A DNA stretch of 59,318 bases, filler included. It is 4 parts of 4 records of this genome, joined end to end, with 100 filler letters (N's around TTAATTAATTAA, not from the genome) between each part and the next. Parts side by side here need not be neighbours in the genome. Positions count along the whole stretch, not along the records: positions 19,354 to 31,733 come from SRR31156797_7062; 3 more parts are not named here. One strand, written 5' to 3'. The notes below the pieces were generated by a model. It did no database searches and was not told the DNA's origin. It saw only the letters and a program-made list of their open reading frames with translations. Of the stretch, positions 19,254 through 54,213 are shown piece by piece. The stretch's first letter is position 1. The number at the start of each line of letters is the position of its first letter. Both the position numbers and the translations under genes were made by a program.

Positions 19254-19353
19254 NNNNNNNNNNNNNNNNNNNNNNNNNNNNNNNNNNNNNNNNNNNNTTA
19301 ATTAATTAANNNNNNNNNNNNNNNNNNNNNNNNNNNNNNNNNNNNNNNNNNNN
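19254..19353. other. Artificial contig linker (N44-TTAATTAATTAA-N44)
   Basis: Six-frame stop linker; composition jumps from AT-rich to GC-rich across it. Confidence 0.97.
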
Positions 19354-22076
19354 TCGAGCACGGCATTGAGAAGGGTCCCATCGTCAGCGGGATGGGCAAG
19401 ATTCTCGCCTACTATCTCGAGGGGGACGGGCACGACATCACCGACCTGCGGACGATTCAGGACTGGGTGGTCAAACGCAGCCTCCAGACCGTCCCGGGCG
19501 TCGGTCAGGTTCTCAGCCAGGGAGGGTATGTCAGACAATACCAGGTCCGTATCGCTCCCGAACAGCTCCTCAAGTACGACCTGACCATCGATGAGGTGGT
19601 CGAGGCCGTTCGGAACAACAACCTCAATATGGGGGCCGGTCTGATCGAGCGCGGCGCCGAGGAATTGATGGTCCGGACGCTGGGGCTCCTCAGCGATGCC
19701 AACGATATCGAAGGGATCGTCATCAAGAGCGTCCGGGGCAATCCGGTTCACGTCCGGGACGTCGCCTCGGTGGAGTTCGGCAATGCTTTCCGGCGCGGCG
19801 TTGCTTCCATCGACGATCAGAAGGAGATTGTGGTCGGGAATATTTACAAACTGCACGGCTCCAATTCTTTTGAAGTCATCCGCCGCATCAAGGAGCGGAT
19901 CGAGCAGATCAATCAGACGCTTCCGGAGGGTGTGAAGGTCGTGCCGTTCCACGACCAGTCGGCCCTGGTGAAAAACAGTATCGATACGGTCAGAAACTCC
20001 CTCGTGGTGGGATTGGTTCTGGTGTGTGTGGTCGCCTTCGTCTTCCTGGGGAACCTCCGTAACGCCTTGATCATGGTCTTCTCCCTGCCGTTTGCGATCC
20101 TGCTGACGTTCTCCCTGATGTATCGCTACCGGATGCCCGGCGATCTGATCTCGTTTGGAGGCGTGGCCATTGCTCTGGGTATGATCATCGACGCCACCAT
20201 CATCATGGTGGAGAAGATCCAGGCATCTCTGCAAGACCCGAAGGCCGAGCGCTCCACCGCCGAGGTCATCATCGAGACCAGCAAGGAAGTCGGCAAACCG
20301 ATATTCTTTGCCGTCGCGATCATCATTCTTGTCTTCCTGCCGATCTTCACACTCCAGGAGGTGGAGGGCAAGATGTTCCGGCCTCTCGCCTTCTCTGTGA
20401 CCGTCACGATGCTGGGTTCGCTCGTCTACGCCCTGGTCGTGGCCCCGGTCTTTTACAGTGTCCTGCACAAGAAGACGCACGCCGAGCGGACGAAGGCGCA
20501 GCAGGAATCCGCCTTTCATCGCGCCTATCGGAGAGTCCTCGAACTGACTTTGGGTCGAGCGGCAGCGGTCTTGAGCGTGGCTGTTCTGTTGCTGGCACTT
20601 GGCGCCGCGACGTTCACGACGTTGGGAAAGGAGTTCATTCCGACGCTCCAGGAAGGGTCCGTCCAGATTCTCGCGCACATGAATCCCAATATCTCCCTGA
20701 AGGAGATCAGCCAGGTAACACGGAAACTGGAAGGCGAGGTTGCGGCCCTGCCGGAAGTCCGGCAGGTGGTGTCCGAGATCGGCTATGGCGAAGTCGGCCC
20801 GCACATGCACCACACCAACTTCGCCTGCCTTACCGTCGAGCTGCATCCGCGCAAGCAGTGGGGCACCGTGGCAACGCAAGAGGCGCTGGTTGCGAAGATG
20901 GACGAGGCACTCGCCGGCTATCCTGGTGTTTCCATCAGTTTCTCGCAACCGATCCAACACGAGATCGATGGACTGGTGGCCGGCGCCGGCACTCAGGTGG
21001 TGGCCAAACTCTTCGGGCCCGACCTTGAAGTGCTGGAAGAGAAAGTGACACAGGTTGAAGAGGTCCTGGCGCACGTACCGGGGGCGGTCGATGTGAGAAC
21101 GGAGCAGTATTCCGGTCAGACCCAGGTCCAGATCCAGCTCGATCGACACCAGATTGCTCGTCACGGGCTCAGCGGCTATCAGGTTCAGCACACGATCCAC
21201 GACGCCGTGGGCGGGGAGATCGTCGGTGCCGTGCTCGATGGAGAGAAGAGCTTCGGTATCAATGTCCGATTCGACAAGCCCTACCGAAACGACGTGGACG
21301 CCATCGGCAGCCTGCTGGTGCGCACGCCATCGGGGTACACCGTGCCGGTCAAACAGCTCGCCCGCGTTCACACTGTCACGGGGCTGCGCCAGATCAGCCG
21401 CGAGGACACGCGCCGGTACATCTCCGTGCAATGCAACGTGCGCGGTCGCGATGCGGGCCGCTTTGTGGAAGAGGCACGCCGCGCCGTGGCCGAGCAGGTG
21501 GATCTGCCCGCTGGATACGAGCTGGCCTGGGGCGGGCAGTTCGAGTTGCGCCAAGCGGCCAACAAGCGGCTTGCGATCATCGTGCCGATCACGCTGGCGC
21601 TGGTCCTCATCATGTTGTATGGCATGTTCAACTCGGCCAAGAACGTCCTGCTGATCGTTCTGAACATCCCATTGGCCTTCGTCGGTGGTGTGTTCGCACT
21701 CGCTTTGCTGGGCGGCAATCTGAGCATTCCCTCTTCGATCGGATTCATTGCCCTCTTCGGGATTGCGCTGACGGATGGGCTCGTGCTGGTCTCCCACTTC
21801 GAGTTCCTGCGCCGCACCGGTTTGCCGCTGAGGCAGGCGGTGGTCAGCGGGTCGCTCTCGAAGCTCCGGCCTGTCATTATGACCACCGTGACCACGGCAC
21901 TCGGACTGTTGCCGCTCATCCTGGCCACCGGGATTGGCTCGGAAGTGCAACGACCGCTGGCGATCGTGGTCGTTGGAGGTCTCTCGTCATCGACCCTTCT
22001 GACGCTGATCGTCCTGCCTGCGCTGTACGTGCTGGCCCACGACGACCGCGCGCCGGCGGTGAAACCTCTGACCTGA
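19354..22076 (+). CDS. CusA/CzcA-type heavy-metal RND permease, 5'-truncated
   Basis: The frame is open back to the gap (EHGIEKGPIVSGMG); LRTIQDWVVK, GMIIDATIIMVE, EGKMFRPLA, GSEVQRPLAIVVVGGL. Confidence 0.93.
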
Positions 22077-22206
22077 CGAAGGCACGCGAAGGGCATCGCA
22101 TCACACCAGCGTATTCACGTCAGCGGCAATTCTGCTATAATCGCGGCGAAGATCGCCCCGACGGGGCTTTGAGCAAAAAGGCAGCGGCAACCGATTGGAG
22201 TGCGGC

Positions 22207-23451
22207 ATGGAATGGTATCACCTTATCAGCCTTGTGGTAGTGCTGCCACAGCTGGTATTCTCGTTTCAAGTGCTGAACAATTATCGGTATGCGCTGCGCG
22301 AAAGCAAGAAGACGCGTGCCTCGTACCGTCCCAGAACCGTGATGATCGTGCCCTGCAAGGGGCTCGACACGAACTTTCGCGACAATATCCGTTCATTTCT
22401 TCTCCAGGACTATGACAACTTTCTGCTCTGGTTCGTGGTGGCCGACGAGGCCGACCCCGCCTATCCGGTGCTCTGTGAGCTGAAGCAGGAGCACGCCTCG
22501 AACTCCAAGGCTGACGATATTCAGATCCTGGTCGCCGGCGACGCCCACGCTCGGGGCCAGAAGGTTCACAATATGCTGCACGCCTACCGCCGGATCGACC
22601 CCTCCATTGAAGTCCTTGCCTTTGCAGACGCCGATGCGTGCATCCACGAGCACTGGCTGAGCCACATCGTTTACCCGTTGCGCAAGTCCAGGATCGGCGT
22701 GACCAGTGGATATCGTTGGTTCGTGCCCGAAACGAACAACCTGGCCAGTCTGGCCCTCTCGGCGGTGAATGCCAAGATTGTCCAACTTCTGGGCAACACC
22801 CGTTTCAACCTGGCCTGGGGCGGTTCTATGGCGATCCGGGTGGAAACGTTCCGCAAATTAGGCCTGGACGAGATCTGGCCGCGAGCCCTCAGCGACGATC
22901 TCGTCGTCAGTCGCGGCGTCAAGCAGGCGGGTTTGAAGGTGACCTACGTGCCGGCGTGTTTGGCCGCCTCGGTGGATCGGATGACCTGGTCCCAACTTGG
23001 TGAGTTTGCCCAGCGACAGTTCGTGATCACCCGCATCGGGGCGCCCCGCACCTGGTGGTTCGGACTGTGCAGCAGCCTGTATTCCGTGTTCGGTCTATGG
23101 GGACTGGTGGCCGCAGCGTTGCTGGGCCAGGGGCCGCGCGAACGTCAGGTGATCTATGGCATCGCGGCCGTGCTCTTCTTTTTGAGCCAGATACTCCGGG
23201 CGATACTGCGACAGGAGATGGCCGGCGCTCTGCTGGTCCAGCAGCGTCCCCAGATGAAATGGGCGAAAATAGCGGACGTGCTCTTCTTCTGGGCATGGTC
23301 GATCCTACTGCTGCTGTTCATCATCTCTTCCGCGTTCCGGCGGACGATTACATGGCGCGGCATCCGGTACGAGATGGTGAGTCTGACAGAGACGACCATG
23401 CTCGCTTCCGATTCGGACGATGACCCGAGACCATCCGCATCCGGCCGATAG
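22207..23451 (+). CDS. GT2/GT21 membrane glycosyltransferase (ceramide glucosyltransferase/HpnI-like)
   Basis: IVPCKG, QKVHN, FADAD (DxD), WGGSMA, SDD, C-terminal ITWRGIRY; SD GGAG and TGCTATAAT at 22133-22141. Confidence 0.82.
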   Translation: MEWYHLISLVVVLPQLVFSFQVLNNYRYALRESKKTRASYRPRTVMIVPCKGLDTNFRDNIRSFLLQDYDNFLLWFVVADEADPAYPVLCELKQEHASNSKADDIQILVAGDAHARGQKVHNMLHAYRRIDPSIEVLAFADADACIHEHWLSHIVYPLRKSRIGVTSGYRWFVPETNNLASLALSAVNAKIVQLLGNTRFNLAWGGSMAIRVETFRKLGLDEIWPRALSDDLVVSRGVKQAGLKVTYVPACLAASVDRMTWSQLGEFAQRQFVITRIGAPRTWWFGLCSSLYSVFGLWGLVAAALLGQGPRERQVIYGIAAVLFFLSQILRAILRQEMAGALLVQQRPQMKWAKIADVLFFWAWSILLLLFIISSAFRRTITWRGIRYEMVSLTETTMLASDSDDDPRPSASGR

Positions 23452-23646
23452 CTGCGCCCATGCCAGAATGTCACCGCAACCGAGCGCCGACGCGCCGCCA
23501 TCTGCCCTCCGGAATGTGCTTCCTGCATCGGCGAGTCACGCAGCGCTGGGCCGAGGGAATGCCGAATATAACGTTTGAAATGGACCGAACGGCCTGTTAC
23601 CATGAATCGTTGGCGGCTACAGCACTGACGCACAGGACAAGGGAAT

Positions 23647-24423
23647 ATGGATCTATCGATTGTCATACCGGTGTACGAAGAGAGCGAGAAGATCGTCCGC
23701 GATATTCGCGACGCAGCCGAGTTTCTGGTCGGCAACGACATGACGGGCCAGATCATCGTCGTGGACGACGGCAGCGCCGACGACACGGCTGACGTGGCGC
23801 GGACCGCACTTGCGCGTCCCTGCGCGGGTGTTGCTCTCGAGGTGATTCGCTACGCCGAGCACAAGGGCAAGGGCTGTGCCGTTCGAACGGGCATCACCAG
23901 CGCAACCGGTGACTTCGTGATGTTCGCCGACAGCGGGTCCTGTGTTCCGTACGAAGAAGTGCTGCACGGTCTCAAGCTGATCAAAGACGGCCAGTGCGAT
24001 ATTGCCCACGCCTCGCGGAGACTGGATGGATGTTGCGTCGACTATAGCCAGGCGTTCCATCGCCGCATCTGTTCGAACCTGTTCCGGCTGTGCATTATGT
24101 GGCTCATGGGAATTCCCTCCCATCTGACCGACACTCAGTGTGGCTTCAAGATCTACCGGGGAACCGTTGCCCAGCGTCTGTATGGCGCTGCCGTCACGGA
24201 CGGATCGGCCTTTGACATTGAGATCATTTTGCGCGCCCGACGTGCCGGCTACAAGATCAAGGAATTCCCCGTGCGCTGGACGGCCGATCCGGACAGTCGG
24301 CTCTCGGTGGTCAAGAGCGTCTGGTACATTCCCCGCGAGCTGTGGCACATTAAGATGGCGTTGCGCCATGAGCCCAGGCATCGACCTCAACCGGCCCCCA
24401 CGGCGTATCGCCAGGACTCCTGA
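23647..24423 (+). CDS. GT2 polyprenol-phosphate glycosyltransferase (ALG5/DPM-like)
   Basis: LSIVIPVYEE, VVDDGSAD, GKGCAVRTG, DTQCGFK, FDIEI. Confidence 0.88.
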   Translation: MDLSIVIPVYEESEKIVRDIRDAAEFLVGNDMTGQIIVVDDGSADDTADVARTALARPCAGVALEVIRYAEHKGKGCAVRTGITSATGDFVMFADSGSCVPYEEVLHGLKLIKDGQCDIAHASRRLDGCCVDYSQAFHRRICSNLFRLCIMWLMGIPSHLTDTQCGFKIYRGTVAQRLYGAAVTDGSAFDIEIILRARRAGYKIKEFPVRWTADPDSRLSVVKSVWYIPRELWHIKMALRHEPRHRPQPAPTAYRQDS

Positions 24424-24694: not shown

Positions 24695-24710
24695 TGGCGC
24701 GGGTTTTGCG
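24695..24710 (+). promoter_or_regulatory. Sigma54 (-24/-12) promoter upstream of the psp operon
   Basis: TGGCGCG-GGTT-TTGCG matches TGGCACG-N4-TTGC with exact GG/GC spacing. Confidence 0.7.
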
Positions 24711-24890: not shown

Positions 24891-25580
24891 ATGGGACTTT
24901 TCAAACGTTTACACCGCATCACCGTCGGTCGGATCGAGGCCTTTCTCTGTCGCGTCGAAGATCCGGAACTGGTCTTTCCTGTCCTCGTCAAAGAGATGCA
25001 GGAACAACTGGAAGCAGCCACCGAGGCCGAGGCGAAGGCCACCGTGACACTCAAGAGCTGCGAGCGGGAAGTCAAGCGGCACGGCGAGACCGTCGACCGG
25101 TATGGCAACGGGGCGCTGCTGGCGATCAAGAAGGGTGACGAAGGCACGGCCCGCCAGTCGGTGCAGGCGCAGATCGAGGCCGAGCGGGCCGCCGAGCTTT
25201 CCGAGAGAAACCTGGAGATCGCGCGGCAGTCACTGGATCGGGCCAACATGAATCGGCAGCGCATCCAGCAGCAACTCGAGGAATTGCAGGCCAAGAAGAA
25301 CGAGATCCTCACGCGGGCCCGCGTCGCCAAAGTGCAGAAGAAGATTCAGGCGACCGTCAACGGGAGTACCGGATCGACCGACAGCATCCTGGACGCTGTG
25401 GCCCGGCTCGAAGCCCAGGTCGAGGAGACGGAGGCGGAGTTGGAGATCCAGGCCAGCCTGACGGGCGAGGGGACCGCGGGTCCGTCACTCGAGCGCAAGC
25501 TGAACGAACTGGACCAGGAAGCGGCGATCGAGAAGCGTCTGGCCGAGTTGAGAGAGAAGGCTGCGAAAGGCGCTTCTTAA
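24891..25580 (+). CDS. PspA/IM30 (ESCRT-III superfamily) protein 1
   Basis: MGLFKRL amphipathic start, VEDPE, GDEGTAR, coiled coils, C-terminal IEKRLAELREK; SD AAGGAG. Confidence 0.9.
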   Translation: MGLFKRLHRITVGRIEAFLCRVEDPELVFPVLVKEMQEQLEAATEAEAKATVTLKSCEREVKRHGETVDRYGNGALLAIKKGDEGTARQSVQAQIEAERAAELSERNLEIARQSLDRANMNRQRIQQQLEELQAKKNEILTRARVAKVQKKIQATVNGSTGSTDSILDAVARLEAQVEETEAELEIQASLTGEGTAGPSLERKLNELDQEAAIEKRLAELREKAAKGAS

Positions 25581-25672
25581 GCGCCTGCTCTTTTCCCCAA
25601 CCTGGCCGATTGCAGTGCGACACGTAGGCGGCGCCGAATTCTCGTCATGCCGCCGGTGTAAGGAGAGAAGCC

Positions 25673-26344
25673 ATGTCGATCTTTGACAGAGTTCGGAGAA
25701 TCACCAAGGCCAACATCAACTGGTTGTTGGACAAGGTGGAGGTGCCCGAGCAGGAACTCGAATCCAAAATCAAGGAACTCGAAGAAACGATCCAGGAAGG
25801 GCGGGAAAGCGCCGCCGCCTACGGCGCGACCTTCCGCCGGCTGGAGCACGAGCAGCAGCAGCTCAAGCAGCAACAGCAGGGCCTCGTTGGGCAGGCCGAA
25901 CAAGCGCTCAAGGCCGGTGACGAAGCCACGGCGCGCCGCGCGCTGACAGACAAGGTCAAGATCTCCGAACGCGTCGGCCAGATCGCGCCGGGCATCGAGA
26001 ACGGGCGCAAGACATACGAACTGCTGCGCGACAATCTCATTCGCTTGCAGGAACAGCTCAAGGTCGCGAAGCTGAAACTCGACGACCTGAAGGCCCGCAA
26101 GCGGACAGCCGAAGCCCAGAAGGCCTTCGATCAGCATCTGGGCCAGGCTCTGGGGGTCGGCCAGGACGGCGTCGCGTTCGACCGGCTGGAGGATGAGGTC
26201 ATGCAGGCCGAGGCGGAGGTCGAGATCCGGCAGGAAATGCACGGCGACGCCCTCAGTGACGTCGAGCTGATGCAGCGCTCCCGGGACCTTCAGATCGAAG
26301 CGGAATTGCAGGCGATGAAAGACCAGCTCGAAGACGAATCGTAG
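25673..26344 (+). CDS. PspA/IM30 protein 2
   Basis: MSIFDRVRRITKANINWLLDKVEVPE, GDEATARRAL, AFDRLEDEV, IEAELQAMK. Confidence 0.92.
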   Translation: MSIFDRVRRITKANINWLLDKVEVPEQELESKIKELEETIQEGRESAAAYGATFRRLEHEQQQLKQQQQGLVGQAEQALKAGDEATARRALTDKVKISERVGQIAPGIENGRKTYELLRDNLIRLQEQLKVAKLKLDDLKARKRTAEAQKAFDQHLGQALGVGQDGVAFDRLEDEVMQAEAEVEIRQEMHGDALSDVELMQRSRDLQIEAELQAMKDQLEDES

Positions 26345-26369
26345 TCGGCGCATGTGAAAGGGCACCACG

Positions 26370-27044
26370 ATGGTGGAATTGATCACAGCCGCCTTCGCCC
26401 CGGTAAATGTCGTGTTCACGGTCCTGCTCCTGTTGACGGGGCTCTACTGGATCACGGTGATCCTCGGGGTGCTCGATGTCAATATCTTTGATGTCGAGGT
26501 CCCGGATTCCGGCCTCGAGGCCGCCGCCGACGTCGATATCGATGTCGACGGGGACATCGGGGTCGACGGTGACGCGAGTTTTCTCCGCTCGTTCCTGCAC
26601 TTCTTCTACGTCGGGGAAGTGCCCACGATGGTGCTGGTGAGCATCCTCGTGCTGAGCCTGTGGTCGTTTTCCGTGCTGGGCAACTACTATTTCAACCCGG
26701 GCGGTTCGCTTCTGGTCGCGACGCCCATCTTTGCTGTCAATCTTGTCTTCAGTGCGTTTGTGATGAAGTTGTGCGCGGTACCGCTGCGGAGACTCTACAC
26801 GATGCTGAACAAAGACTACAACGCTCCGGGTCGTATCCTGGGGCGCATCGGCAAGGTCATTACGACCCAGGTGAGCAAAGACAAGATGGGACAGGTCGAG
26901 GTGTCCACCAAGGGCGCGCCGATTGTGTTGAATGTCCTGTCGCAGGATGAGCACGTGTTTGCCAAGGACGAGGAGGCTGTTGTCGTCAAGAAAGAGGACG
27001 AAAAGGGGATCTATCTCATCGCACCCGTAGATTTGGAGAGATAA
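26370..27044 (+). CDS. YqiJ/NfeD-like membrane protein with OB fold
   Basis: TM helices, acidic DVDIDVDGD linker, GEVPTMV, C-terminal OB-like GRIGKVITTQV...GQVEV; directly upstream of flotillin. Confidence 0.8.
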   Translation: MVELITAAFAPVNVVFTVLLLLTGLYWITVILGVLDVNIFDVEVPDSGLEAAADVDIDVDGDIGVDGDASFLRSFLHFFYVGEVPTMVLVSILVLSLWSFSVLGNYYFNPGGSLLVATPIFAVNLVFSAFVMKLCAVPLRRLYTMLNKDYNAPGRILGRIGKVITTQVSKDKMGQVEVSTKGAPIVLNVLSQDEHVFAKDEEAVVVKKEDEKGIYLIAPVDLER

Positions 27045-27046
27045 AC

Positions 27047-29041
27047 ATGTTAGCTGCCATGACTGACGCCGTACTAACCACCATTATCATCTTCATTGTT
27101 TTATTCATCGCCGGGTTTCTGGCCCTGCTGGTCAAGTGCTACCGCAAGGTGCTCCAGGGCCAGGCCTTGATTCGCAACGGGGTCGGAGGTACCCGCGTCA
27201 GCTTCTCGGGCATGTTCGTGATTCCCATTCTGCATCGCGGGGAGTACATGGACATCTCGGTCAAGCGCATCGAGATCGATCGGCGCGCCGAGCAAGGGCT
27301 GATCTGTAAGGACAACCTGCGGGCCGATATTGTCGTGGCCTTCTTCGTGCGGGTCAACAATACCGTTGAGGACGTCGTCAAGGTCGCCCAGTCGCTGGGT
27401 TGCGAACGGGCCTCGGACCGCCAAGCGCTGGTTGAGCTGTTTGATGCGAAGTTTTCCGAGGCGCTGAAAACCGTGGGCAAGCAGTTCGATTTCTCTGAGC
27501 TGTACACCAATCGGATGCGTTTTAGGGAGCAGATTCTCGATGTGATCGGGACGGACCTGAGCGGCTACGTGCTCGAGGACGCCGCCATCGATTACCTCGA
27601 GCAGACGGATAAGAAGCTGCTGAAACCCGACAACATTCTCGATGCTGAAGGTATCAAGAAAATTACTGTGCTGACGGCCGAGCAGTTCGAGATGGCCAAC
27701 GAGCGTGAGCGTGAGAAAGACAAGACCATCACGCAGCAGAACGTAGAGGCTCAGGAGGCGATCCTCGAACTCAACAAGCAACTGGCCGAGGCGGAAGCCA
27801 AGCAGCAGCGAGAAATCCTCACGATCCAGGCGCGGGAGGAGGCCGAGACGAAGAAGGTCGAGCAGGGCGAGCGTGAGAAGGCCGAGAAAGCCCGCATCAC
27901 GGCCGAAGAGGAAATCGCCGTGGCCGATGAGAACAAGCAGCGGCAAATCATCGTTGCCATGCGTAATAAAGAACGCACCGATGCCGTCGAAACGGAGCGC
28001 GTCGAGCGCGACCGGGGCATCGAGGCTACCGAACGCGAACGTGTCGTGACGATCGCCCAGGTCGAGAAGGACAAGGCGGTCGAAGGGGAGAAGAAGGAGT
28101 TGCAGGCGGTCATTCGCGAGCGGGTGATCGTCGAGAAGTCGGTCGCGACCGAGGAAGAGCACATCAAGGATGTACGGCAATTCGCCGGCGCCGATCGTAG
28201 CAAGCGCGTCCAGATCACCAAGGCCGAAGAAGAGGCCGAGCAGGCGCTGGTCAAGGACATCAAGCAGGCCGAGGCGGCCAAGAAGGCCCAGGAGTTCTAC
28301 GCCGAACAGCAGATCATCGAGGCGCAGGCCAATCAGGATGCGGCCGAAAAGAATGGCGAGGCCAAGAAGACCCTGGCGGCCGCGTCGGTGAAAGAGCACG
28401 CGGTGGTCGGGACGGCCGAGGCAGAGGTTATGGAGGTTCGGGCGGTGGCCGTCGAGAAGGAAGGAACCGCTGAGGCCAAGGTTATGGAGTTGAAGTATCA
28501 CGCCGAGGCCGATGGCATTCGCGACAAGGCCGAGGCGATGAAAATCTTCGATGCCGTCGGCAAGGGGCACGAAGAGTTCAAGCTCCAGCTCAATAAGGAC
28601 AAGGAGATCGAACTGGCCGAGATCGACATTCGCCGTCAGATTGCCGCCGAACAGGCCCGCATCGTGGGCGAGGCGCTCAAGTCGGCCAACATCGACATCG
28701 TCGGTGGCGAGAATCGGTTCTTCGAGCGGCTGGTCAATTCCATCACGACCGGCAAGAGCGTCGACCGCATGGTCAACCACAGCGACGTTCTCACCGATGT
28801 CAAAGGCGCCTTGATCGGGCCGGACATGGACAGCACGCGGAACCAGATTCAGAAGTTCGTCTCGCAGTTCGGCCTGACCTCTGAAGACATCAAGAACCTG
28901 ACGATCTCCGCCCTCGTGATGAAGCTGATGGGCAAAGCTGACAAGGAACAGAAGGGCTTCCTCAGCGGCGTTCTCAAGACGGTCAAGGAACTCGGCATTG
29001 GTGACAAGCCTGTGAAGGACCTGGGATTGAAGGGCAAGTAA
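27047..29041 (+). CDS. Flotillin/SPFH (YqiK-like) protein
   Basis: N-terminal TM, GLICKDNLRADI, FSEALKTVG, long AEA-rich coiled coil, ANIDIVGG. Confidence 0.92.
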   Translation: MLAAMTDAVLTTIIIFIVLFIAGFLALLVKCYRKVLQGQALIRNGVGGTRVSFSGMFVIPILHRGEYMDISVKRIEIDRRAEQGLICKDNLRADIVVAFFVRVNNTVEDVVKVAQSLGCERASDRQALVELFDAKFSEALKTVGKQFDFSELYTNRMRFREQILDVIGTDLSGYVLEDAAIDYLEQTDKKLLKPDNILDAEGIKKITVLTAEQFEMANEREREKDKTITQQNVEAQEAILELNKQLAEAEAKQQREILTIQAREEAETKKVEQGEREKAEKARITAEEEIAVADENKQRQIIVAMRNKERTDAVETERVERDRGIEATERERVVTIAQVEKDKAVEGEKKELQAVIRERVIVEKSVATEEEHIKDVRQFAGADRSKRVQITKAEEEAEQALVKDIKQAEAAKKAQEFYAEQQIIEAQANQDAAEKNGEAKKTLAAASVKEHAVVGTAEAEVMEVRAVAVEKEGTAEAKVMELKYHAEADGIRDKAEAMKIFDAVGKGHEEFKLQLNKDKEIELAEIDIRRQIAAEQARIVGEALKSANIDIVGGENRFFERLVNSITTGKSVDRMVNHSDVLTDVKGALIGPDMDSTRNQIQKFVSQFGLTSEDIKNLTISALVMKLMGKADKEQKGFLSGVLKTVKELGIGDKPVKDLGLKGK

Positions 29042-29145
29042 GGCACGTAGGGTGGCTTCGACGCTATAGGCGTTGATCCGTTGGCCAAAGCGTGGGGGCG
29101 AGTAGCCATTCGCCCCTACCAGATATCCCGACGAAGGGTGTGACG

Positions 29146-31733
29146 ATGGACGACAACAACACAGGCGACCGTCAGGCCGAGGCCCCGGAGCAGGTCCAGC
29201 TCCAGGGTGGGACCTATGAGATTCTCCGAGCCCGGCTTGGGAGCCACAGCAAGGAACTCCGCAGTCGGCTCAATGAGCTGAATGCCGCGCGGAAGGACGT
29301 TTTCGGGGCCGTCGAGAACAAGCTGCTCTCCAGCGAACGTGTCTCGACGAGCAACAACTGCGTCCCGCGCGACATGGTTCCGGTCGGGGACAAGTTCATA
29401 TTCGGATACAACGTCTTCGTGGGGCTCCGCGCCGAGACCGTACTGGAGGATGTCTTTGCCATCTACCAGTGGAAAGAGGGCACCTTCAGTCCGTGTCCGC
29501 TGGACCTGATCCGCTGTGGTGAATTCGAATCCGATTTTCGGAATCTGTACAAGTACTATCGGCGCACCGTTTTCGCCAAGTTCTCCGTCATTGGTCCGCA
29601 TCTGTTTATGGTCTTTCGCGTGGGCCGGGACGTCACGGACGTGAAAACGTTCAAGTGGCTCATCCGGGAGGGGTCGCTCGAATACGTCGACAATCGCAGC
29701 GACCACGAGTACGTCTTTCCGTCACAGCACCAGTTCGAGTGGCGGCGCGTGACGCAGGACATGTTTCACGAGGGCAAGAACCCCCACATGTCCATCGAGG
29801 ATCGGGTCTTCGTTGAGACGGTTGGCGGGGACCTGACCGTCAAGATCGAGGACAACACCGAGACGGGTGAGGGCATCTACGCCGAGCCGGTCGACAATCC
29901 GGATCAGACGCTCAGCGACGCCGAGGTGTACTACGCGATCGTGGGTAACGTCATTCTCCTGAAGGTGCGCCCGTACGAGGAAAAGACATTCCGCTACATT
30001 CTCTACAACGAGAAACTCCAGCGAGCCATTCGGATCGATGTGATCGAGCAGGCCTGTTTGCTGCTGCCCGAAGATCACGGGCTCGTCTTTCCCAAGGGAT
30101 ACTACCTCCAGACGGGTGAGCAGAAGCTGTTCGAGACGCAGATGGACGATATGGTCTTCGAGAAGCGTCTCGATTCTCCTAACGGCGAAGACTATCTCTA
30201 CATCTTCTACAACCGCGAGAGCGGCGTCTATGTGCTGCTTTCCTACAACATCATCGAGCAGAAGATCGGCACGCCCGTGGTCTGCAACGGGTACTCGTTC
30301 TTCGAAGACGGCACCCTGATGTATTTCCGCGCCAATGGGGAGGCCAAGAAGCACCACGTTATCCAGATCTGGCAGACGCCCTATTACGGCCCCGATTTCA
30401 CCATCCCCGTCCGGCATGAATCGGAACTGTACAAGATCGGCAACAAGGACATCGTGCGGTGCATGGCTGAATGCAACGAGGTCATGATGCTGATCGGCCA
30501 GGACGAGACCTACGCGGATCTCTACCTGGACATCAGCCGGAAGGCCGAGGAGATCCAGGATGCGTACTTCTGGATCGCCTCGCCCGAGACGTTCCGTCTG
30601 GACGAACCGCTGGTGGGCATTGAAACCGCGGCCCGCGCGGCCGTCGACGAATACGAGAAGGTCGCGCGCACCAAGGACAACACGCGGGCCGAGATCGGGA
30701 GGGTCAGCAAGGAGGTCCGCGAGATCATCGAGGGCCTCGACTATGGCCGGATCGACGACATCAGTGGCTTCGTCGAACGCCTGACCCAACTCCGCTCGGT
30801 TCGGGGTGCGGTGATCTCGTTGCGGGACCTGCGCTATGCCGATACGGAGATGATCGAGACGCTGGAAGGCGAAGTGGCCGAGCATACCGAGCAGCTCTCG
30901 CGCCAGTGTGTGGAATTCCTGCTCGAAGCCGCATCGCTCGATCCGTATCGCCGGACGGCCGAGCAGCAGAAGCAGCAGGTGCCCCAGTTGCAGAAGGTCA
31001 CGGAGGCCAAGGCACTCCAGCAACGGGTCACCGAGACCGCGTCGGAGTTGGAGATGCTGACCGATATCGTCAGCAATCTCAAGATTGAAGACGCGACGGA
31101 AACGATCGCCATCATCGACAACATCTCGCTGGTCTATGCCCAGGTCAACCAGGTCAAGTCGACCCTGAAGAACAAGCTGAATGAAATCGGCCGGGTCGAG
31201 GGCCAGGCCGAGTTTAGTGCGCAACTGAAGCTCATCGACCAGTCCGTGATCAATTATCTCGACGTGTGCGACACGCCCGAGAAGTGCGAAGAGTATCTCA
31301 CCAAATCGATGGTCCAACTTGAGAACCTGGAGAGCCGATTCGCGGACTTCGAGGAGTTCGTCGTGCAGCTGGCGGACAAGCGCGAAGAACTCTACGACGC
31401 CTTCGAATCGCGGAAGGCCCAGTTGGTCGCCGAACGCAACCAACGGGCGTCGGCGCTGATGGCCTCGGCCGAGCGCGTGCTCAAGGGCATCGAGAATCGG
31501 GTGAAGGCCTTTTCCGACATCAATCAGATCAACGGGTACTTCGCTTCCGATCTGATGATCGACCGCATGCGCGAGACCGTTAAGCAACTGCGGCGGCTGG
31601 GCGACACGGTCAAGGCCGAGGAGGCCGAGGGCCGGCTCAAGAGCATTCACCAGGACGCGGTGCGACAGCTCAAGGACCGACAGGCCCTGTACGAAGACGG
31701 TGAGAACGTTATCCGTTTCGGGAGCCATCGATT
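29146..31733 (+). CDS. Large 'DNA repair ATPase'/DUF3686-like protein (propeller-like region plus coiled coil), 3'-truncated
   Basis: GGTYEILRARL start, VFVETVGGDLTVKIEDNTETGEGIY, QIWQTP; runs into the gap. No P-loop is visible in the retained part; the AAA domain is expected beyond the gap from recalled family architecture. Confidence 0.78.
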
Positions 31734-31833
31734 NNNNNNNNNNNNNNNNNNNNNNNNNNNNNNNNNNNNNNNNNNNNTTAATTAATTAANNNNNNNNNNN
31801 NNNNNNNNNNNNNNNNNNNNNNNNNNNNNNNNN
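31734..31833. other. Artificial contig linker
   Basis: N44-TTAATTAATTAA-N44. Confidence 0.97.
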
Positions 31834-54113: not shown

Positions 54114-54213
54114 NNNNNNNNNNNNNNNNNNNNNNNNNNNNNNNNNNNNNNNNNNNNTTAATTAATTAANNNNNNNNNNNNNNNNNNNNNNNNNNNNNNN
54201 NNNNNNNNNNNNN
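54114..54213. other. Artificial contig linker
   Basis: N44-TTAATTAATTAA-N44; composition drops to very AT-rich after it. Confidence 0.97.

Follow-up and report, generated by a model that had tools for sequence, protein, structure and literature searches.

An operon of Phycisphaerae-type Planctomycetota with two PspA paralogues, a flotillin and a giant ATPase, most likely a lineage-specific form of a widespread membrane-maintenance module

Introduction

What could an operon do in which two divergent PspA genes stand before a flotillin and the gene of a giant ATPase? Such an operon occupies positions 24891-31733 of the window, by which the whole analysed stretch of 59,318 nucleotides is meant; it is a chain of four unrelated contigs, with N44-TTAATTAATTAA-N44 spacers between them. 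The original prediction was of an ESCRT-like system, in which a PspA pair is recruited by a flotillin scaffold and remodelled by a dedicated ATPase. The layout of five co-oriented, closely spaced genes was recovered, with all five on the + strand and intergenic gaps, from pspA1 to the ATPase gene, of 92, 25, 2 and 104 nt. The supposed gap before the rest of the last gene was not, as the sequence that follows is a different contig.

The neighbourhood had been expected to be known from comparative genomics, and it is. Ravi et al. 2024 (PMC11237479), in the portions available, describe the same operon type with CesT/Tir-PspA instead of the PspA pair, report a PspA-less abbreviated triad as widespread, and interpret these associations as sub-membrane assembly machinery; Planctomycetes are unmentioned in the available main text. 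A literature search found no mechanistic study, in line with the original prediction. The kind of operon is thus known and uncharacterised, and what is new here is the PspA pair in place of CesT/Tir-PspA. The operon is most likely a lineage-specific form, from Phycisphaerae-type Planctomycetota, of a widespread and experimentally uncharacterised membrane-maintenance module.

Results

Identity of the five genes

The predicted gene identities were upheld by Pfam matches and, for the flotillin, by similarity to YqiK and the SPFH fold. pspA1 (24891-25580, +) encodes a 229-aa PspA/IM30 protein (PF04012, E 1.8e-22, residues 2-224), with AAGGAG 8 nt ahead of its ATG and 467 nt of intergenic DNA upstream. 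A sigma-54-like -24/-12 match (24695..24709, +; TGGCGC-N5-TTGC, 1 mismatch) lies 182 nt 5' of pspA1, scored against what we take to be the sigma-54 consensus. Sites with up to 2 mismatches are not enriched window-wide (34 found vs 45.6 expected), and this one is a weak lead, suggestive by position only. A terminator-like hairpin (25568..25586, +; 8 pairs, 5 G-C, T-rich tail) overlaps the pspA1 stop codon and could possibly act as a partial terminator setting the ratio of PspA1 to the downstream products; the region shows no excess of such sites either (9 vs 5.8 +/- 2.4 in shuffles).

pspA2 (25673-26344, +) encodes a divergent 223-aa PspA/IM30 paralogue (PF04012, E 4.3e-27). The two proteins share 28% identity across 216 residues (E 4e-19), which agrees with their description as clearly divergent. 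When both were tested for an N-terminal amphipathic helix, hydrophobic moments as large as those observed arose in 733 and 267 of 2000 shuffles.

The third gene (26370-27044, +) encodes a YqiJ/YuaF (NfeD-like, DUF1449) membrane protein, with PF21001 at 24.3 bits (cut-off 23) and an E value of 0.002 to E. coli YqiJ. Three hydrophobic (TM) segments and an acidic loop of DxD repeats are combined with a C-terminal OB-like domain. Its stop codon is 2 nt ahead of the start codon of the YqiK-type flotillin (SPFH) gene (27047-29041, +; 664 aa). No Pfam match was obtained on scanning this flotillin, which was identified by its 31% identity to E. coli YqiK (residues 4-443, E 5e-47) and by the SPFH fold. 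It has an N-terminal TM helix; the SPFH domain covers residues ~32-196 and long helices residues 197-546, and the C-terminal part is a conserved helical extension. The best Foldseek matches of the model (pLDDT 74.4) were prohibitin, flotillin 9bq2, stomatin, HflK/C and QmcA (E 1e-9 to 3e-7). After the hydrophobic segment comes KCYRK, which by the positive-inside rule would place the scaffold on the cytoplasmic and not the periplasmic face.

A giant soluble ATPase with a divergent AAA+ module

The last gene (29146..31733, +) is the 5' part, 862 codons, of a DUF3686 + DUF7902 gene (PF12458, E 6e-184; PF25472, E 7e-26). It is cut by the contig end at 31733. The ATPase domains had been placed beyond a gap; they do lie outside the window, but the next part is another contig and not the remainder of the gene, and in the whole stretch the homologue P0001 (1791 aa) is matched only by its residues 1-862, at 93.6% identity. 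ATG 29146, which fits the 94%-identical P0001, is the most likely start, in preference to GTG 29092. The model of the 5' part (pLDDT 86.8) consists of a helix (22-53), a beta-propeller (59-410) and helices (427-848). Judged from relatives, the full-length protein would be ~1790 aa and ~200 kDa.

An AAA domain is present in all 120 full-length homologues among the matches listed (1619-1893 aa), confirming the expected C-terminal AAA domains; in P0001 the module spans residues ~1272-1400. Its PF00004 match is partial (E 7e-7, profile positions 1-67 of 131). The Walker A motif SPPGYGKTT is invariant in 41/41 aligned relatives and present in 67/67 full-length locus ORFs. Walker B is Asp-Asp in the same 41, and Asp-Glu in none of the 67. 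Between the two motifs no aromatic pore-loop motif was evident by eye. With such a Walker B and no evident pore loop, vigorous substrate threading is not assured, and a switch-like ATPase appears equally possible. No hydrophobic segment was found in the protein, which is soluble. The Vps4-like reading of the ATPase was not sustained: there is no MIT domain, the N-terminus being a helix and then a propeller, and AAA+ is the only defining trait in common.

In source names the protein is called 'DNA repair ATPase', and the Pfam description of DUF3686 reads 'ATPase involved in DNA repair'. Were that label correct, the membrane genes would be unrelated neighbours. The label had been doubted, and no visible basis for it was seen: DNA-binding, nuclease and helicase domains are all missing from P0001, P0009 and P0051, and solved proteins resemble the ATPase only along ~36-67 residues at the P-loop, namely RuvB (E 1e-3; ~36 residues only) and Rix7/NVL. 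A LexA-family regulator stands divergently upstream in Bacteroidota loci, as a repair gene might have it, but the synteny with membrane proteins described below argues otherwise, and the literature search returned no paper with 'DUF3686', nor with 'DNA repair ATPase' together with 'flotillin'. A repair function is barely credible.

The conserved core is YqiJ-flotillin-ATPase

A planctomycete-led query gave at least 584 matches, and the gene neighbourhood was surveyed at the 79 that scored best, so that the survey is biased. Among these best 79, 58 of the 63 loci with at least 2.6 kb upstream have flotillin 5' of the ATPase gene in the same orientation, and YqiJ is present in 48 of 61 with at least 3.6 kb; median gaps are 109.5 nt (flotillin-ATPase) and 11 nt (YqiJ-flotillin). 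By name the loci belong to Planctomycetota, Verrucomicrobiota, Bacteroidota, Desulfobacterota, Clostridia and others. In a plasmid collection 13 records match the ATPase, and the five loci inspected (Pseudomonas, Streptomyces, Proteus, Deinococcus, Hymenobacter) hold all three core genes. Recurrence of this order across several phyla is more than chance. Only 7 of these best 79 loci have a PspA gene 10 kb or less from the ATPase gene, and 72 have none in that range, in agreement with the widespread abbreviated triad of Ravi et al. The conserved core is YqiJ-flotillin-ATPase, and not the whole set of five genes; co-conservation of all five, as originally predicted, holds for flotillin and YqiJ and fails for PspA. 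In two Hymenobacter loci a DUF559 endonuclease-like gene is found between the flotillin and ATPase genes.

The tight flotillin-ATPase synteny could be read by analogy to HflK/C-FtsH, with a flotillin cage bounding a membrane patch, the ATPase extracting, unfolding or assembling membrane clients, and PspA merely patching stress. SPFH scaffolds are paired with AAA+ machines in the solved FtsH-HflK/C complexes 7wi3 and 9cz2, and the predicted beta-propeller could plausibly bind clients or adaptors. P0001, however, has no protease domain or membrane anchor, its Walker B and pore region speak against a strong unfoldase, and no conserved client gene is nearby: the next most recurrent neighbour cluster reaches 12 of the best 79 loci, with members of unrelated Pfam families. 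This arrangement is improbable.

In five of the 63 assessable loci among the best 79 (L009, L020, L040, L055, L060) there is no flotillin, so the ATPase can stand alone. All of these except L055 lie beside MksE, TIR, Uma2, DUF4258 and TumE genes, which would suit a conflict or defence module acting against phage or membrane-attacking agents by membrane sensing or sacrifice, as would the copies on megaplasmids or secondary replicons and the endonuclease-like gene inside the Hymenobacter interval. Defence-like neighbours are confined to those four loci, though, and housekeeping-type neighbours are found in most; PADLOC models gave nothing beyond coiled-coil noise with the five proteins (E 0.004-0.009). 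A defence role is accordingly very unlikely.

PspA is a variable addition to the core

Linkage of PspA to the triad varies in position and subfamily among the loci. L004 and L005 have a PspA1-type gene, 35-37% identical to PspA1, on the downstream side of the ATPase. In Bacteroidota PspA is upstream (L024, L064, L074, L076, L084), preceded by CesT_Tir_1 in L024, L076 and L084 by Pfam match or annotation and in L064 by cluster membership; in L074 the ORF upstream of PspA has no Pfam match. These Bacteroidota proteins are only 16-18% identical to the PspAs of the window. On pQBR103 a yjf-type PspA operon is fused to the triad. Among 120 listed matches, 71 PspA relatives are PspA1-type and 49 PspA2-type, the latter 68-93% identical to PspA2. 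Conservation of the pair was judged only indirectly, by contigs of matching size in the listed matches: 11 contig sizes are common to both lists, and 19 of 28 distinct sizes of at least 6 kb recur in the ATPase or flotillin match lists. Close relatives appear to retain the pair.

The C-terminus of PspA1 bears EAAIEKRLAELR (residues 210-221). Among the matches listed, a C-terminal [DE]xx[LIVM]xxRLxx[LM][KR] helix is found in 66 of 71 PspA1-type and none of 49 PspA2-type relatives; it resembles what we take to be the MIM1 consensus of eukaryotic/archaeal ESCRT-III. PspA is reportedly established as a member of that superfamily, by Liu et al. 2021. These features would fit an ESCRT-like system in which PspA1 and PspA2 co-polymerise, flotillin is the recruiting platform, and the polymers are disassembled or recycled by the giant ATPase, acting as a dedicated, non-homologous Vps4 analogue. 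At least three arrangements, in three phyla, link PspA to the triad; Ravi et al. (PMC11237479, in part) propose ATP-dependent remodelling for PspA-AAA+ associations; and Vps4-like ATPases appear absent in bacteria according to the available part of a 2025 review (PMC7619361), which would leave the niche open. Against this, PspA is adjacent far less often than flotillin (7/79 vs 58/63 of the best 79 loci), the ATPase has neither an MIT domain nor a canonical AAA module, and an acidic-x-x-L-x-x-L-K helix is common across PspA, e.g. in Bacteroidota sequences, so that the PspA1 motif may be a family trait plus Arg. The ESCRT-like system is doubtful.

Discussion

We favour, with about even confidence, a flotillin-centred membrane-maintenance module before whose core the PspA pair has been placed as a lineage-specific effector. 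Physical interaction among the operon proteins was shown by none of the computational tools, and we infer both the interactions and the ATPase substrate in what follows. On the inner side of the membrane, flotillin and YqiJ would form an SPFH scaffold. Solved SPFH cages with the AAA+ protease FtsH and with NfeD partners (7wi3, 9cz2, 8z5g) were returned by the structure search. The scaffold would bring PspA1/PspA2 polymers to stressed membrane, as the SPFH protein YdjI, described as required for PspA localisation, does in B. subtilis (PMC8581546, in part). The ATPase may dock through its propeller/helical part, with the extra C-terminal domain of flotillin as the candidate site, and ATP binding and hydrolysis would remodel or reset the scaffold-bound assemblies. 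Among candidate substrates flotillin alone is universally linked, and PspA would be an add-on client in some lineages.

Comparison with known systems

The class of Ravi et al. shares the flotillin, YqiJ and ATPase families and an upstream PspA, and its architecture was found again in L024, L064, L076 and L084; the window has no CesT/Tir and a second divergent PspA in that place. As in E. coli yqiJ-yqiK and B. subtilis yuaF-floT, the YqiJ-like partner is directly upstream of flotillin, and YuaF is the sole PDB match of the YqiJ family profile (E 0.076). This conserved NfeD-SPFH operon logic is described in the available text of PMC2636767. In contrast, no ATPase or PspA gene is beside yqiK in E. 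coli, and YqiK, the one protein compared, lacks the C-terminal ~230 residues of ATPase-linked flotillins, whose family profile spans it only at positions 9-447 of 694.

Proteobacterial pspFABCDE also has a PspA effector. PspB, PspC and PspF, by contrast, were not found here, as originally observed, on scanning 8 main, 4 small and 6 antisense ORFs; the contig is just 12.4 kb, so this absence is uninformative for the whole genome. PspF is an NtrC-type AAA+ transcription factor, its architecture unrelated to this ATPase.

Like HflK/C-FtsH, in which the coupling is both genetic and physical, the module sets an SPFH scaffold with an AAA+ machine, but its ATPase has no peptidase domain or TM anchor and its scaffold would be cytoplasmic. 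With ESCRT-III and Vps4/CdvC the window shares several ESCRT-III paralogues beside an AAA+ ATPase gene and, in PspA1, a possible MIM1-like helix. Its ATPase differs in lacking an MIT domain, in the divergence of its single AAA+ module, whose Walker B is Asp-Asp, in being linked as a rule to flotillin and not PspA, and in its size, presumably ~4x that of Vps4.

B. subtilis pspA-ydjGHI differs in having no AAA+ ATPase and a single PspA, and we take YdjI to belong to a different SPFH subfamily from the flotillin of the window. In both, an SPFH protein, membrane partners and PspA are encoded together, and in B. subtilis the first two are described as needed for membrane localisation of PspA (PMC8581546, PMC9239133, available parts).

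Gene organization of the operon contig

The 59,318-base window is composed of four contigs that are unrelated to each other, with G+C contents of about 0.37, 0.60, 0.57 and 0.29. They are separated by spacers of the form N44-TTAATTAATTAA-N44 (six runs of 44 N) at 19254-19353, 31734-31833 and 54114-54213. Apparent ORFs crossing the spacers, such as ORF 29092..31785 which enters an N run, are artifacts. All the genes on the second contig (19354-31733; 12.4 kb) are on the + strand. The operon consists of pspA1 (24891-25580, +; 229 aa; PF04012, E 1.8e-22), pspA2 (25673-26344, +; 223 aa; PF04012, E 4.3e-27), a YqiJ-like gene (26370-27044, +; 224 aa; PF21001), a flotillin gene (27047-29041, +; 664 aa; without Pfam match) and a gene for a DUF3686 and DUF7902 ATPase (29146-31733, +; PF12458, E 6e-184; PF25472, E 7e-26), which is cut after 862 codons. 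The intergenic gaps are 92, 25, 2 and 104 nt, and 467 nt lie 5′ of pspA1. The ATPase start was assigned to ATG 29146 and not to GTG 29092, because P0001, a 94%-identical full-length homolog of 1791 aa, begins at that residue. When the whole window was searched by tblastn, residues 1-862 of P0001 matched solely at 29146-31731, with 93.6% identity.

The original prediction described five co-oriented, closely spaced genes with two clearly divergent PspA/IM30 proteins and no pspB, pspC or pspF in the contig. ORF calls, Pfam matches and gaps of 2-104 nt bear out this description: PspA1 and PspA2 are 28% identical, and the PspB, PspC and PspF families were absent from the 18 ORFs (8 main, 4 small and 6 antisense) scanned on the 12.4-kb contig. 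No second PspA, YqiJ or flotillin homolog was found elsewhere in the window. The genes 5′ of the operon (19354-24423) are on the same strand and all envelope-related, namely a 5′-truncated AcrB/CzcA-type RND transporter (to 22076, +), a GT21-like glycosyltransferase (22195-23451, +) and a GT2 glycosyltransferase (23647-24423, +).

No Rfam match was obtained in this contig, and promoter and terminator scans gave counts no higher than in shuffles. A sigma-54-like -24/-12 element (TGGCGC-N5-TTGC) is present at 24695-24709 (+), inside the 467-nt region 5′ of pspA1; the pattern is not enriched across the window. The pspA gene of E. coli depends on sigma-54 and PspF. A G+C-rich hairpin with a T-rich tail at 25568-25586 (+) overlaps the pspA1 stop, ahead of the 92-nt gap. 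This hairpin is a candidate partial terminator, which may yield excess PspA1.

Flotillin and the YqiJ-like protein

Direct searches with the flotillin gave little: there was no Pfam match even at E 10 (Band_7 undetected), no phmmer match in PDB, and a score of 17.3 bits (E 0.002) against the cut-off of 700 for NCBIfam FloT. Its family profile matched only QmcA in PDB (E 7.8e-4), over a coiled-coil stretch. By BLASTP, residues 4-443 are 31% identical to E. coli YqiK (E 5e-47), and relatives of the protein are named flotillin or YqiK by their sources. In the structural model (pLDDT 74.4), a TM helix precedes an alpha/beta domain (32-196), which is followed by very long helices (197-546); a single hydrophobic segment is found at residues 1-36. 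Foldseek searches of PDB with this model returned prohibitin, flotillin, stomatin, HflK/C, erlin and QmcA-YbbJ at E 1e-9 to 3e-7. From sequence likeness and modeling, the 664-aa protein is identified as a YqiK-type SPFH flotillin with an N-terminal anchor and a long coiled-coil region.

The flotillin family profile aligns with YqiK at positions 9-447 of 694 only. As YqiK is covered only up to profile position 447, the ATPase-linked flotillins have a C-terminal extension, which in the window protein comprises about 230 conserved residues (residues ~430-664; ~28340-29038, +). E. coli YqiK, which has no linked ATPase and is the one ATPase-less flotillin compared, does not have this extension. The ATPase may dock at this extension.

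The YqiJ-like protein has three hydrophobic segments and a marginal PF21001 score (24.3 bits, cut-off 23). E. coli YqiJ aligns with it at E 0.002, and its Hymenobacter counterpart is annotated DUF1449. NfeD-like proteins end in a soluble OB-fold domain; with the family profile, the C-terminal part here had a sole and weak PDB match, to 59 residues of the YuaF soluble domain 2k14 (E 0.076). The YqiJ-like gene lies 2 nt 5′ of the flotillin gene in the window, and the median gap is 11 nt over 48 loci (from the best 79 of at least 584). Between hydrophobic segments 1 and 2 is an acidic DxD-repeat loop, DVNIFDVEVPD...DVDIDVDGDIGVDGD (26475-26573, residues ~36-68), whose DxDxD pattern is kept in the 48-sequence family alignment. 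The loop might bind cations or polyamines; polyamine-type genes adjoin the module on the plasmid pQBR103.

Domain architecture of the ATPase

As the gene breaks off at codon 862, the window does not contain the AAA module, which is seen in relatives. The original prediction that the ATPase domains are not visible here is correct, but they do not lie beyond a gap: position 31734 is a spacer, so that the contig ends there and the sequence beyond belongs to an unrelated contig. When only longer proteins were searched, 5444 of the 7998 candidates scored were relatives at E <= 1e-3. PF12458, PF00004 and PF25472 were present in 120/120 of the listed relatives (1619-1893 aa; mostly Phycisphaerae/Sedimentisphaerales), in agreement with the proposal that the DUF3686 family carries C-terminal AAA domains. 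Among 50%-identity cluster representatives, an index-free search gave 1150 matches at E <= 1e-3, of which 369 reached E <= 1e-30. P0001 has DUF3686 at 37-475, DUF7902 at 597-680 and one AAA module at ~1272-1400.

The AAA module was the most conserved block in an alignment of P0001 with 41 full-length representatives taken from 150 listed cluster representatives. Walker A (SPPGYGKTT) is invariant in this alignment and present in 67/67 full-length ORFs from the fetched loci. Walker B is hhhhDDIQH, both Asp residues being invariant in 41/41 aligned sequences; the strict DD form occurs in 59 of the 67 locus ORFs and the DE variant in none of the 67. Both Walker motifs asked for in the original prediction are present in relatives, Walker B as Asp-Asp. 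The DnaA initiator likewise has an Asp-Asp Walker B.

The PF00004 match in P0001 is partial (positions 1-67 of 131, E 7e-7). In profile searches of PDB, the matches were confined to about 36-67 residues around the P-loop, in RuvB (E 1e-3) and Rix7/NVL, and an Atlas search with the AAA part gave generic AAA/AAA_5 clusters only. A second, degenerate AAA domain considered at residues 860-1240 was rejected, as comparison with the AAA module gave an hhalign probability of 0.2.

The window's 862 residues were modeled at pLDDT 86.8 from a 65-sequence alignment. In the model, residues 22-53 form an N-terminal helix, 59-410 a beta-propeller and 427-848 helical bundles; no hydrophobic segment was found in the ATPase. 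DUF3686 is thus predicted to adopt a beta-propeller fold. The Foldseek matches were proteins that combine a propeller with helices, at low global TM-scores, and WD40 propellers (DCAF1) with TMt 0.41-0.43. A 'protocoatomer' N-terminus was discarded: IFT-A, nucleoporin and HOPS subunits were the top matches, but with TM <= 0.19 on the query, while the propeller alone fits well. On the basis of the model, the N-terminal part is treated as a generic propeller plus helices.

The listed relatives are named 'DNA repair ATPase', 'MoxR-like ATPase' or 'AAA family ATPase' by their sources. If the first of these names were right, the protein would act in DNA repair, and nothing found points that way. No domain in P0001 and the further homologs P0009 and P0051, and no gene context, supports such a role. 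The suspicion that the label is probably wrong is thereby supported, and this widely propagated name should not be trusted.

Conservation of the gene neighborhood

Species-representative genomes were scanned for the ATPase; at least 584 relatives were obtained among 600 matched stretches, and the best 79 loci were kept. Their ORFs were searched with profiles seeded from the window proteins, and doubtful ones with Pfam and a cleaner PspA profile. Among these best 79 of at least 584 loci, a same-strand upstream flotillin gene was found in 58/63 loci with at least 2.6 kb upstream and YqiJ in 48/61 loci with at least 3.6 kb upstream; L013, a locus with no ATPase ORF, is outside both denominators. 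Of the 79 loci, 7 had a true PspA gene in the 10 kb fetched on either side of the ATPase gene. Therefore, the conserved unit is the YqiJ-flotillin-ATPase triad, and of the five-gene neighborhood originally proposed the triad is conserved but the PspA genes are not. No other widely shared neighbor family was found in these 79 loci.

The PspA gene is directly downstream of the ATPase gene in two Phycisphaerae loci (L004, L005), upstream of YqiJ in four Bacteroidota loci (L024, L064, L074, L076) and on the opposite strand in L021. Pfam places a CesT_Tir_1 gene ahead of PspA in L024 and L076, and cluster membership does so in L064; the L074 ORF had no Pfam match. 'PspA' matches of 592-603 aa in L039 and L073, obtained with the first PspA HMM iteration, are PEP-utilizing enzymes by Pfam and were rejected. 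In the plasmid collection the ATPase occurs in 13 records, and in those inspected YqiJ and flotillin were upstream in 5/5 and PspA was present in 2/5. On pQBR103 of Pseudomonas fluorescens SBW25 (L080; record 85112-97641), PspA, a rhomboid protease, DUF2491, DUF350, DUF1190, a glutathionylspermidine synthase-like protein, the YqiJ-like protein, the SPFH protein and the ATPase are encoded in a single co-oriented row, in which a yjf-type PspA operon is joined to the triad. PspA has joined the triad repeatedly, in different ways.

The neighborhood had been noted in comparative genomics, as the original prediction stated: the available text of Ravi et al. 2024 (PMC11237479) describes both a CesT/Tir-PspA form of this operon and a PspA-less triad that is widespread. 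The pQBR103 row combines two PspA operon groups which that text keeps separate.

Several further genes were observed near the ATPase. In the Bacteroidota loci a LexA-family regulator (HTH and peptidase S24) is divergent and upstream of the CesT/Tir-PspA-YqiJ-flotillin-ATPase operon (L024:4936-5643, -; L084 of the plasmid collection:2589-3374, -; also L064, L074, L076), and may act on this operon as an SOS-like or cleavable repressor. In two Hymenobacter loci a DUF559 gene (Vsr-like endonuclease fold) separates the flotillin gene from the ATPase gene (L064:9533-9952; L076:9356-9910). Two Phycisphaerae/Sedimentisphaerales genomes have, immediately after the ATPase gene and in the same orientation, a gene for a transglutaminase-like/DUF3857 protein of ~1280 aa (L001:15440-19282; L002:15457-19344). 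A separate 606-aa classical AAA protein (PF00004, E 7e-25) is found near the triad in four loci (L012:4204-6021, L015, L018, L022).

A role as a defense module is hinted at by the carriage of the ATPase on plasmids (the 13 records) and by the defense-type neighbors of its flotillin-less copies. Four of the five flotillin-less ATPase loci (among the best 79 of at least 584) have defense-island-like surroundings; the neighbors are MksE and a TIR-domain protein in L009, Uma2 endonuclease in L020, DUF4258 in L040, and TumE/HVO_A0114 and a 1517-aa DEAD-box protein in L060. A PADLOC search, however, gave coiled-coil noise only.

The PspA pair

PspA1 and PspA2 span positions 1-218 and 1-215, respectively, of the 220 positions of PF04012. 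Both score below the NCBIfam equivalog cut-offs, for example 90.7 and 87.6 bits for TIGR02977 (cut-off 242.95). Both are therefore PspA family members and not E. coli PspA orthologs. PspA1 is 35-37% identical to the PspAs 3′ of the ATPase in L004 and L005, and 16-18% to the Bacteroidota PspAs. When an N-terminal amphipathic membrane-binding helix was looked for, residues 2-21 proved basic (+4 in PspA1, +3 in PspA2), with hydrophobic moments of 0.33 and 0.45 which were reached in 733/2000 and 267/2000 shuffles.

Among 120 listed PspA relatives from a search with both proteins, 71 were PspA1-type (67-96% identity) and 49 PspA2-type (68-93%). Co-location in these close relatives was judged from coinciding 'longest contig' sizes, which do not show gene order and can be equal for different contigs. 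Eleven contig sizes were common to the two PspA lists, six of them between 2.6 and 5.5 kb; ten were common to the PspA and ATPase lists and 15 to the PspA and flotillin lists, and 19/28 distinct sizes of at least 6 kb reappeared in the ATPase or flotillin lists of relatives. Indirectly, this indicates that the window's close relatives retain both PspAs beside the triad. In four species representatives with ATPases 69-73% identical to P0001 (L001, L002, L003, L016) the pair is missing.

The pattern [DE]xx[LIVM]xxRLxx[LM][KR] occurs within the last 45 residues of 66/71 listed PspA1-type proteins versus 0/49 PspA2-type proteins. In PspA1 it is EAAIEKRLAELR (25518-25553, +; residues 210-221), in the C-terminal helix. 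This pattern resembles the MIM1 motif, which mediates the binding of certain ESCRT-III subunits to the Vps4 MIT domain. A caveat is that a related acidic-L-x-x-L-K helix closes many PspAs. PspAs of multicellular magnetotactic bacteria are without MIM motifs, according to the accessible part of a preprint (10.1101/2022.11.08.515611).

That the ATPase is a true PspA disassemblase is a legitimate hypothesis. PspA1 and PspA2 would then form a two-component ESCRT-III polymer on a flotillin/YqiJ platform, with PspA1 as the 'A-type' subunit carrying the MIM1-like C-terminal helix and PspA2 as the 'B-type' subunit without it; the giant beta-propeller AAA+ ATPase, whose architecture is unrelated to that of Vps4, would bind the PspA1 tail and dismantle the polymer with ATP. 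The PspA1 tail has, however, no MIT domain in the ATPase to receive it, and we consider this mechanism improbable. If true, bacteria would have a convergent counterpart to ESCRT-III/Vps4, and the gap currently described in the field as 'no Vps4-like ATPase in bacteria' would be closed.

Discussion

On the best-supported interpretation, flotillin is the center of a sub-membrane module that has its own ATPase, and some lineages have added PspA effectors. The data favor this reading over the ESCRT-like model, in which the ATPase recycles the PspA pair on a flotillin scaffold, because flotillin/YqiJ and not PspA is the constant partner of the ATPase; the ESCRT-like model, although legitimate as a hypothesis, is disfavored also because the architecture and motifs of the ATPase are not those of Vps4. 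New in this analysis are the PspA-PspA operon form in Phycisphaerae-type bacteria, the PspA1-specific tail motif and conserved PspA pair in Phycisphaerae-type relatives, the invariant DD Walker B, the C-terminal extension of ATPase-linked flotillins relative to E. coli YqiK, and the counts tying the ATPase to flotillin rather than PspA. The ATPase-flotillin tie, the PspA1 tail motif and the flotillin extension each open a direct binding experiment, and cultivable carriers of the module include Hymenobacter, P. fluorescens SBW25 plasmid pQBR103 and Streptomyces. The openly accessible literature searched contained no experimental work on the ATPase, and the original statement that no mechanistic characterization is known stands to that extent. 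One operon unites flotillin, an NfeD-like partner, a dedicated ATPase and, in some lineages, PspA. The module bears on what bacterial flotillin cages do and on bacterial ESCRT-III switching without Vps4. How PspA/Vipp1 switch between polymer and monomer without Vps4 is called an open question in the available text of a 2025 review (PMC7619361).

Comparison with known systems

Vps4/CdvC have an N-terminal MIT domain, whereas none was matched in P0001, P0009 and P0051, where the modeled N-terminus is a helix followed by a propeller. They have a classical AAA cassette with an Asp-Glu Walker B and Vps4_C; the ATPase has a partial PF00004, DD and no Vps4_C match. They are regularly paired with ESCRT-III genes, whereas PspA is near the ATPase in 7/79 (the best 79 of at least 584 loci). 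In its domains and motifs the ATPase is not a Vps4. The module could also be a client-processing machine of the HflK/C-FtsH kind; that ATPase has TM anchors and a peptidase domain, and P0001 is without either. The classical Psp system (pspFABC) has PspB, PspC and PspF beside PspA, unlike the 18 ORFs scanned on the window contig.

Other systems bring the same partners together. In B. subtilis YuaF is the NfeD-like partner of flotillin, and the YqiJ-like family of the window resembles YuaF weakly. PspA occurs with band-7/FloT and NfeD in Acidobacteriota, as given in the accessible part of Popp et al. 2022. The SPFH protein YdjI carries PspA to the membrane in B. subtilis, according to the available text of PMC8581546, and solved SPFH cages in PDB include AAA+ and NfeD partners. 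By analogy, these last two precedents fit a flotillin-centered module.
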